From NCBI RefSeq assembly GCF_029227855.1, contig NZ_CP074356.1: 64,000 bases of DNA; one strand, given 5' to 3'. Source of the DNA: Escherichia coli. GTDB taxonomy: Bacteria; Pseudomonadota; Gammaproteobacteria; Enterobacterales; Enterobacteriaceae. This document shows, piece after piece, positions 25,390 to 28,300 of this stretch. Made by a program: the position numbers. Position 1 is the first letter of the stretch. The number at the start of each line of letters is the position of its first letter.

Positions 25390-28300
25390 TAACAGGCCAG
25401 CACCGATGCCTGATAAAACGCTCGCTGCGTTTTATCAGGCTCCTTTCCTCGCTTCTTCGTACGCTGCCAGCGTTCGCAGCCTTGCCTCTTTGTGATCAAC
25501 TATCGGTTGCGGATAATCCAGCGTCACACCTGCTTTCTGCGCCCACTTCCACGGCTCATGCACCACTTTCCCTGGCACATCGCGCAGTTCCGGTAGCCAC
25601 TGGCGGATAAACTCGCCTTCGCGGTCAAATTTCTCGCCCTGGGTTGTCGGGTTAAAAATACGAAAATACGGCGCTGCATCGGTTCCGGTTGAAGCGGCCC
25701 ACTGCCAGCCACCGTTATTAGCTGCCAAATCACCATCAATCAGCTGCGACATGAAATATCGCTCGCCTTCGCGCCAGTCGATCAACAAATCTTTCACCAG
25801 AAAACTGGCTGTAATCATCCGTAGCCTGTTATGCATCCAGCCAGTGCTGTTAAGCTGACGCATGGCAGCATCGACAATCGGGTATCCCGTTTTGCCTTCC
25901 TGCCAGGCCTGTAAATGTGCGGGATTGCTCTGCCACTGCACACGATCCGTCCAGGCAATAAACGGACAATGTTTACACAACGAGGGGTAATACGTCATCA
26001 GATGACGGTAGAACTCGCGCCAGATCAGCTCACTAAGCCAGACACTACCGGCCCCACCGTCCAGCGCCTGCGGCTGTTCCGCCAACAGGCGATGCAGACA
26101 CTGGCGAGGCGATAACCCGCCCGTTGCCAGGCTGGCGGACAAACGGCTGGTACCTTCAACAGCCGGAAAATCTCTTTGTTGCTCATACTCTCCGGCACCG
26201 TTCTGGCAAAACTGGCGTAATTGCGCAATCGCCGCTTTTTCTTCCACCGGGAAATGCGCAGTATCGAAAGGCTGACGAGGATAATTCAGCGTAATGGATG
26301 GCGCGGGTTCTATCATTCCGCTACTACGTACTTTTGGCGCAGCGACGCACTCCGGCATCCCTTCTCGCAGCCGTTTCAGCCAGGCATTTTGAAAAGGCGT
26401 AAAGACTTTGTACATCTCATGATTGCCAGTCATCACCGCGCCAGGCGGCAGGATCACGCTGTCATCAAATCCTTCACACACCACGTTACGCAGCGTTCTC
26501 TCAACCTGCACATCCCGCGCCCGCTCATTCACCTCATACTGATAGTTATAAAACAGATGGGTAACACGATTTTCCGCGCACACCTGTTCAACTATTTCGA
26601 CGCTGGCGGCAAAGTCATCCACTTCATGAAACAGCAAAGGAATGCCTTTTTCCGCCAGCGCGATTTGTAGCCCGTTCAGTTGTGCATTGATAAATTCAGC
26701 CTGACGCGGCGACATATTATGCGCCGCCCACTGGCGTGGTGTAGCGATATACAACGCCAGCACGCGTGCAGACGAATAGCGGCAAGCGGCAGCCAGTGCG
26801 AAATTATCGTGCAGACGTAAATCCTGGCGAAACCAGACCAGATGGGTAGTCATAAAACTCCTGCATGGCGCAAGTTAATCACACGCGGCCAAAGTTCGAA
26901 ATAACGCTGCTCTGAAAGCCAGGCGTCAGGATAAAACGCCATATAGTGTTTGATACGCATCAGCGGCGCAAGAAGCGGTTGCTCGCCACGGCGATAACTG
27001 TCGATAAGCGCCGCCAGCTGCTGGCGTTCTGTGGAATCAATATGTGGGCGAAAATATCCCTGAACGTGCATCAAAACGTTAGTATGATCACGCCGGTTGG
27101 CAGGGTGAGAAAGCAAAACAATTACGCGTTGGCGGTACTGGTTGTAATAGTCATCCAGATTTTGCCACTGGTGAATATCAGCCACAAACGGGCCAAGTTT
27201 GCGGTACTCGGGCTGGGAATGGGCCAGAAAGACGAGTTTATAGCGGCTGTGATAATCGTTGAGTGCCCCGCGCGTTAAGCCATGTTCTTTCAGTCGATGT
27301 AACTCATGAAGGGCGAAGATACGGATTAGGGTGCTGTCATCAAATCGTTGCTGATTCATTACTGCTCCTGAACGGTTTACAGGAGTAAGTGTAGACGTTG
27401 GGAAATGATATTTGTGAAGTTAATCCTGTTGTAGCAGGGCAAGATTACGAAAGCCCGCTCCCCGCAAGGACTGACGTCAGGTAGTTTCTGTCCATGGCTG
27501 CCCTTTCCATTCAAACGTGAAATCAATAAGTTCATCAGGGACATCGCAAACAATGTGAAGACGGATTTCTTCTCTGCCGTGACTCTTTTCACTCATTGCG
27601 TAACTGCCATGCTCTGGATTATTTAATTCTTTCAGCGGAAACTTTTCCTCAAAGGCTTTATTTAGCCGCCCCTGGTTTCCTTTTACAGCGAATAAATAAT
27701 CACCGCCCTGTTTTTGTATCTTCTCTGCGATATCTTTCTGGCAACCCATCGCATCAGTTGTGATAATTTTTCCTTTAATATCCAACATGTTAAGAAGTTC
27801 AGGGATAGCTGTAATTTCATTGGATTTCTCATCCGTCCTGATCTGTCCGATGACCAGACTGTGCATTGTTGAGAACGAACTAATGACATGAATCGCTCCC
27901 CTGCGGCGACTCTAGTCATAAGAGTGCCGGAGCGTTTTTCCATCAATTGCAATGACGCCTTTATCATCTGAAGAATGGCAGTCACGCATCCAGTTAATAA
28001 AGCACTCGTGAAATTTTGCAGGACTGATACAGGATACAACTCTGGCAATGGTATCGTGAACAGGAATACCATTTTCAAAATCACCATATTGCTTCAAAAA
28101 ATCGAGATGTGTTTCCCCAAAATCCTCTATATCTTCCCAGCCTTCTGCACCAGAAATAACGGCACAAATAGTCAACAGTAGAATATCCGACAATTTATGT
28201 TCCACTTTCCAGGCTTGTCTGTAATCGGGGATAATAGAAATATGTTCCATCAATTTTTTAAGTTCCATTTTGTTCTCCTTAATTATGTAAGGAGTATTTG

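Follow-up and report, generated by a model that had tools for sequence, protein, structure and literature searches.

An apparently old internal deletion and a younger amber codon in ybfD, the likely H-repeat relic beside ybgA-phrB in Escherichia coli

Introduction

The transposase-like gene at the distal end of the Rhs island in Escherichia coli contig NZ_CP074356.1 is, with very high probability, ybfD, a non-functional copy of ISEc1 (H-rpt, ISAs1 family) that closes an RhsC-type island next to ybgA-phrB and that has been hit at least twice. On comparison of alleles, one of these lesions, an internal deletion of 313 bp, is old and widespread, and the other, an in-frame amber codon, is young and clonal. 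A sequence-only reading of the same DNA had described the gene as inactivated by a single amber codon and truncated at its 3' end. Here we describe the relic and its limits, consider the order in which it was damaged, compare it with named H-rpt copies, and weigh other explanations of its structure. Throughout, the window is the whole analysed stretch of 64,000 nucleotides, and strands are given relative to it.

Identity of the gene and its reading frame

The element and its coding part occupy the following positions:

27435..28412, minus strand: relic of ISEc1 (H-rpt, ISAs1 family), 978 bp against 1291 bp in the intact element, both termini kept
27477..28268, minus strand: ybfD reading frame, 263 codons plus TGA, broken at codon 119
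27915..28268, minus strand: 118-aa N-terminal ORF left upstream of the amber codon, with the whole DDE_Tnp_1_assoc domain (aa 8-94)

Read from the window sequence, the frame opens with ATG at 28268-28266 and closes, 263 codons later, with TGA at 27479-27477, and the ORF list gives it as two ORFs in the same frame, of 118 aa (27912-28268) and 129 aa (27477-27866). This translation agrees letter for letter with the frame with a single in-frame TAG that had been proposed beforehand. When Lys is put in place of the TAG, Pfam finds DDE_Tnp_1_assoc (PF13808) at aa 8-94 (E 4.5e-34) followed by DDE_Tnp_1 (PF01609) at aa 102-232 (E 3e-17), which is the domain order of the ISAs1 family, and the 118-aa fragment alone scores 123.5 bits against the NCBIfam model NF033564 (transpos_ISAs1), whose cut-off is 70. 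Over 913 bases, blastn gives 97.3% identity between this DNA and full-length ISEc1, and together with the Pfam matches of the Lys-restored frame this identity places the frame far beyond chance. The earlier assignment to an H-repeat transposase gene of the ISAs1 family is thus borne out by Pfam, NCBIfam and synteny, and can be narrowed to ISEc1 and to the orthologue of ybfD.

The orthology is seen in position as well as in structure. The gene lies directly upstream of ybgA-phrB and co-directional with it, at the distal end of the Rhs island, and it has the internal deletion junction of ybfD. In a megablast search of 5,426 complete E. coli genomes, the 100% matches carry the label “ybfD: ISAs1 family transposase” and are located between an orphan RHS fragment and ybgA. 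In strain 7/2 the identical sequence is flagged by RefSeq/PGAP as a ybfD pseudogene with the remark “internal stop; incomplete; ... missing C-terminus”; ybfD is an ordinary pseudogene that is already annotated as such.

Upstream of the ATG, a strong Shine-Dalgarno sequence, AAGGAG, is located 6 nt ahead of the start codon (28275..28280, minus strand). The promoter and terminator scan around ybfD gave no more sites than expected from shuffled sequence, and an Rfam scan of 26800-29100 (E <= 1) found no family. The one promoter-like site to be listed is weak:

28310-28282, minus strand: promoter-like site, 9/12 match only

Limits of the element and the internal deletion

The ends of the relic and the rearranged 3' part of its gene are as follows:

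28397..28412, minus strand: left terminal inverted repeat, CAGGGAAAGATCATCA, read directly
27435..27450, plus strand: right terminal inverted repeat, CAGGGCAAGATTACGA, read inward; the same end as in the full-length copy L003
Abutting the right inverted repeat (IRR): ...TTAATCCTGTTGTAG
27499..27502, minus strand: junction of the 313-bp deletion (IS 914-1226; ORF nt 770-1082; codons 257-361)
27477..27500, minus strand: out-of-frame tail QPWTETT*, read from what remains of the 3' end of the transposase gene

As a reference for the full element we used the yhhI copy of ISEc1 (L003, 1357-2647; 1291 bp). In a blastn comparison with the window, IS 1-913 corresponds to 28412-27500 (97.3%) and IS 1225-1291 to 27501-27435 (97.0%), and the same search with all 1291 bp found no second ISEc1 copy in the window. 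Aligned with the yhhI locus, the window likewise loses homology at about 27500, after which 27510-27435 aligns with the final bases of the complete IS. The retained right end includes ~55 nt from the end of the transposase ORF and the terminal CAGGG repeat. Both CAGGG termini are therefore still present in the relic, whose terminal inverted repeats agree at 12 of 16 positions, as suits a member of the ISAs1 family.

The junction reads ...GAATGGAAAGGGC joined directly to AGCCATGGACAG..., and the two breakpoints in an intact copy, GAAAGGGC and GAAAAGC, form a short imperfect direct repeat with a 2-bp “GC” microhomology. Because 313 is not divisible by 3, the deletion shifts the frame, so that the 3' end of the ORF is read as QPWTETT*. 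The lost codons contain the conserved block HWHVENKLHW (residues 302-311), and the Pfam DDE_Tnp_1 match covers only profile positions 3-139 of 200 in ybfD, against 3-200 in YhhI. Judged from motif position and Pfam coverage, HWHVENKLHW would be the expected place of the third catalytic acidic residue, a glutamate, of such DDE transposases, and its loss would abolish catalysis. With a 313-bp deletion, a frameshift and an amber codon, the copy is a defective derivative of ISEc1 and not an autonomous member. No target-site duplication is recognisable in the flanks, which read ...GCCAAGGA before the IS and CTACAACA... after it, as is expected if the copy is old or has been rearranged by recombination.

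The amber codon in one lineage

The second lesion is a change of one base:

27912..27914, minus strand: amber TAG, codon 119 (plus-strand “cta”); intact copies have AAG/Lys; A-to-T change, gene nt 355

The intact ISEc1 transposase YhhI (378 aa; L003) reads ...RHSYDKSRRRG... in this region with AAG at codon 119, and AAG is also found in all 13 other ybfD/ybfL alleles extracted. The lysine that had been expected for this position was therefore correct, and the alignment to full-length ISAs1-family transposases and to the equivalent alleles reveals no natural stop there. The carriers were counted with a 41-mer that has the TAG in its middle. Any 28-base megablast seed taken from it necessarily covers the variant base, hence only TAG carriers match. 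Of the 5,426 complete E. coli genomes, 96 contain it, at one site per genome and always in ybfD.

A 100-mer that combines the private SNPs of the window (D104G, A131S) with AAG at codon 119 finds three genomes at 100%, namely AST215, AF40 and GMF054. The ybfD alleles of AST215 and AF40 carry R236* rather than the amber, and that of GMF054 differs from the window at 2 of 792 nt, which are A355T and a change of the stop codon from TGA to TGT. Since these sister alleles share the private SNPs and keep AAG, the TAG is the derived state, which originated on the branch to the 96-genome clade. The description of the stop as a recent nonsense point mutation stands, in that the single A-to-T change, confined to these carriers, is both recent and lineage-specific. 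The clade is probably the ST405 clone: the carrier 50579417 is described as ST405 (PMC6046176), the carriers WCHEC4533 and WCHEC96200 were analysed among ST405 genomes (PMC9037040), and four records with the TAG bear the name “strain 405”.

We also note that the GMF054 gene (L020:2701-3492), the closest allele that keeps AAG, lacks the stop of the shifted frame by the same TGA to TGT change, and its ORF does not end at codon 264 but extends into the right end of the IS and the flank.

Order of the two events

All 14 of the 14 ybfD alleles compared, including K-12 and the AAG-keeping sisters, are 792 nt long, in register, and share the same deletion junction. As the deletion is common to every allele examined, the gene was already defective and the amber codon came as a later, redundant hit. 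The claim that the gene was inactivated by a single amber codon is accordingly not sustained, given that alleles without the amber lack residues 257-361 all the same. The spread of the deletion was followed with a 241-nt query that runs from the start of ybgA through the flank and the IS right end to the junction. At least 80% of the query was covered in 3,771 genomes, and in an evenly spaced sample of 30 of its hits a full-length match in a single piece was found in 17 records, while the locus was absent from about 5.

The history that we propose has two steps. In an older step, 313 bp were deleted between the imperfect direct repeats, leaving 256 native residues followed by QPWTETT*; residues 257-361 were lost and the frame shifted, with both IS termini surviving. 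In a recent step, an A-to-T transversion turned Lys119 (AAG) into TAG on the branch to one clonal group, probably ST405, so that translation now ends after 118 residues, that is the DDE_Tnp_1_assoc domain and 24 further residues. The amber codon would then have had no effect on a transposition competence that was lost beforehand, and it may be viewed as a neutral lineage marker, provided that the changes are selectively neutral as we infer.

Other attempts to date the deletion, to find its ancestor or to detect the deleted form elsewhere gave little. The junction GAATGRAAAGGGCAGCYATGG was scanned in one genome per species to date the deletion and produced two chance matches only, in a Lachnospiraceae MAG and in Pseudoxanthomonas, neither with other similarity to the window; the E. 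coli representative of that collection evidently lacks the exact junction. A 70-mer across the junction, sought at other loci as a possible sign of mobilisation in trans, returned mostly half-length matches to full-length copies and so was uninformative. In strain 107 (L015:2618-3845) and CPEC24103 (L016:2614-4123) a full-length 1137-nt H-rpt ORF lies by ybgA, each with a stop of its own (W20* and Q18*, respectively). These copies were considered as the undeleted ancestor of ybfD and rejected, because the DNA abutting the right terminal repeat differs from that of the window (78 bp of unrelated DNA in strain 107 and 363 bp in CPEC24103) and they are thus not undeleted ybfD at the same site. 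The differing flanks do indicate that the distal end of the island exists in several structural variants.

Independent stops and recombination among H-rpt copies

Stop codons are found at different positions in different lineages. The K-12-type alleles of ybfD carry W254*, which gives the 253-aa YbfD; E65* is found in 266917_2 and N1131, and Q18* in EC6622, O111 RM9322, an ETEC isolate (L3_E36_ETEC) and EF7-18-58. Counted with the W20* of the full-length copy in strain 107, this pattern would be one of neutral decay, in which the amber codon is one of several independent nonsense mutations.

The Q18* alleles (L006, L010, L011, L012) consist of a ybfL-type 5' part followed by ybfD-type sequence with the deletion junction, and in O111 RM9322 and the ETEC isolate the 5' variants are identical to K-12 ybfL (L002:1734-2870). 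As ybfL itself carries Q18*, these alleles are ybfL/ybfD recombinants, and from their sequence they look like products of recombination that lost the interval between tandem H-rpt copies. Such mosaicism also bears on the substitution rates. Pairwise dN/dS among ybfD alleles is 0.02-0.31, with dS of 0.11-0.20; values this low, and not about 1, could taken alone suggest constraint, but the alleles are mosaics of paralogous H-rpt copies and dN/dS is therefore uninformative on this point. Most of the allele differences probably go back to paralogues that were evolving as functional transposases, and the changes private to the window lineage, four replacement or nonsense against five silent, are too few to decide. 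For orthologues of a single species a dS of 0.11-0.20 seems high, and the window ybfD is nearer to full-length yhhI-type ISEc1 (97.3%) than to K-12 ybfD (94.8%). The two observations together suggest repeated gene conversion among H-rpt copies.

Comparison with named H-rpt copies

The closest named relative by position is K-12 ybfD (b0706; H repeat-associated putative transposase), which occupies the same site between the Rhs accessory region and ybgA-phrB and shares the 313-bp deletion, the junction and the 792-nt frame in register at the 94.8% identity given above. It differs in that Lys119 is kept and the product of 253 aa ends at W254 (TGG to TGA). In addition, the right end of the neighbouring ybfL copy stands in place of the left ~24 bp of the K-12 IS; the left end in the window, by contrast, is complete and abuts an orphan Rhs fragment. 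NEB Turbo, which is derived from K-12, has the order ybfD-ybgA-phrB as in the window, preceded by ybfQ and ybfL; judging from this annotation, K-12 RhsC presumably contains three tandem H-rpt copies, of which ybfD is the third. The full-length copies of ISEc1/H-rpt (yhhI, ydcC; 1291 bp, 378 aa) have the same ends as the relic, 97% identity over the retained 980 bases and the same Pfam and NCBIfam assignments; the relic lacks IS 914-1226, carries the amber and cannot encode a complete DDE domain. K-12 ybfL is comparable as an H-rpt copy in the same type of island that was knocked out by a nonsense codon (Q18*), but it is of full length (1137-nt ORF), has its stop at another codon, and is absent from the island of the window.

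The Rhs island and its neighborhood

The limits of the island are set by UPEC 536 (L017), which lacks it and is collinear with window 24799-27397 and then 33885-36380; at this empty site the positions 27397 and 33885 are joined with 6 unrelated bases between them, which puts ybgA next to ybfA-kdpF. The Rhs island thus corresponds to window 27398-33884, between ybfA and ybgA. Its parts relevant here are:

27398..27434, no strand: last 37 bp of the Rhs island, from the right end of the IS to the chromosomal backbone on the ybgA side
28376..28993, minus strand: orphan Rhs C-terminal fragment, 205-aa ORF (NCBIfam RHS_core 1143-1261 and Rhs_assc_core)
29546-33697: RHS core protein, 1383 aa

The statement that the relic marks the edge of the Rhs accessory region agrees with this boundary, since the relic ends 37 bp inside it. 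With the edge lying just 38 bp upstream from the start codon of ybgA, island-bearing and island-free strains differ in the region upstream of ybgA-phrB. On the other side, the orphan Rhs frame enters the left end of the IS at 28412 and stops 12 codons inside it, which means that the H-rpt interrupts or replaces the end of the orphan toxin tip. The orphan fragment consists of the end of an Rhs core and a short variable tip, and no immunity gene follows it. Further upstream, a 173-aa ORF (29046-29567, minus strand) shares 22 bp with the end of the gene for the 1383-aa RHS core protein; it is in the slot where an immunity gene is expected, and it matched no NCBIfam family.

Alternative readings of the locus

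The shortened gene could be explained in ways other than deletion followed by a nonsense mutation. If the right part of the IS had simply been cut away by a rearrangement between the island and the ybgA flank, the ORF would run into non-IS sequence, and the RefSeq remark on a missing C-terminus, as well as the end of ORF homology to full-length transposases at FEWKG, would be explained. Such a 3' truncation, which the sequence-only reading had also assumed, is highly improbable, because 27501-27435 matches the final 67 bases of ISEc1 (IS 1225-1291) at 97% identity, with the terminal repeat and the out-of-frame end of the ORF included, and because the 978 bp present and the 313 bp missing add up to exactly 1291; the right terminus is in place and the loss is internal. 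There is next to no chance that codon 119 is really open and that the TAG was introduced by sequencing or assembly, or is a polymorphism confined to one isolate. In favor of this stands the general point that a stop made by one base can be an error, with nothing specific found; against it, the same TAG is present in the 96 complete genomes, which were independently sequenced and assembled and come from many countries and hosts, and at least 30 records match the allele of the window over 1101 bases at 100% identity (megablast, complete E. coli genomes). An identical TAG in that many independent assemblies rules out error, and it supplies the confirmation for which re-sequencing had been suggested and is now unneeded.

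It might also be argued that the shortened product has been domesticated, and that the 118-aa domain or the 253-263-aa forms bind ISEc1 ends and regulate or inhibit H-rpt transposition. Truncated transposases have such roles in some IS families besides this one, the DDE_Tnp_1_assoc domain stays whole in spite of the amber codon, the strong Shine-Dalgarno sequence is kept, and pairwise dN/dS is low. Moreover, H-rpt genes including K-12 ybfD are reported to be up-regulated in long-term stationary phase (PMC4032248), as measured with primers that fall in sequence common to all H-rpt copies. We consider domestication very unlikely nonetheless. The stops lie at many positions, with Q18* and E65* inside the N-terminal domain, and this variation across lineages means that no single product is conserved; the locus is missing in island-free genomes (UPEC 536 and the about 5 of 30 sampled hits mentioned above); and the low dN/dS is explained by the mosaicism of paralogues. 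Decay of a gene that was already defective thus remains the preferred reading. Some residual activity of the relic can be imagined, although each form of it is a long shot. Since both terminal repeats are kept, the relic could be a non-autonomous element moved in trans by intact transposases of the YhhI/YdcC type; alternatively, the 118-aa product could act as a trans-dominant regulator, or the premature stop might exert Rho-dependent polarity on the co-directional ybgA-phrB (photolyase), located 120 nt downstream.

Significance

The biological weight of the locus is small, for it is a known and annotated pseudogene remnant of an IS never shown to transpose; no H-rpt transposition activity has been seen (PMC3032704). 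What the analysis adds is that the annotation “missing C-terminus” hides the true lesion, an internal deletion with both IS ends in place, and that K119amber offers a clean single-base marker of one clonal lineage, probably ST405, that accounts for the 96 carriers. More generally, the locus, at the border of an Rhs island, illustrates how H-rpt copies decay by independent nonsense hits and recombine among themselves.
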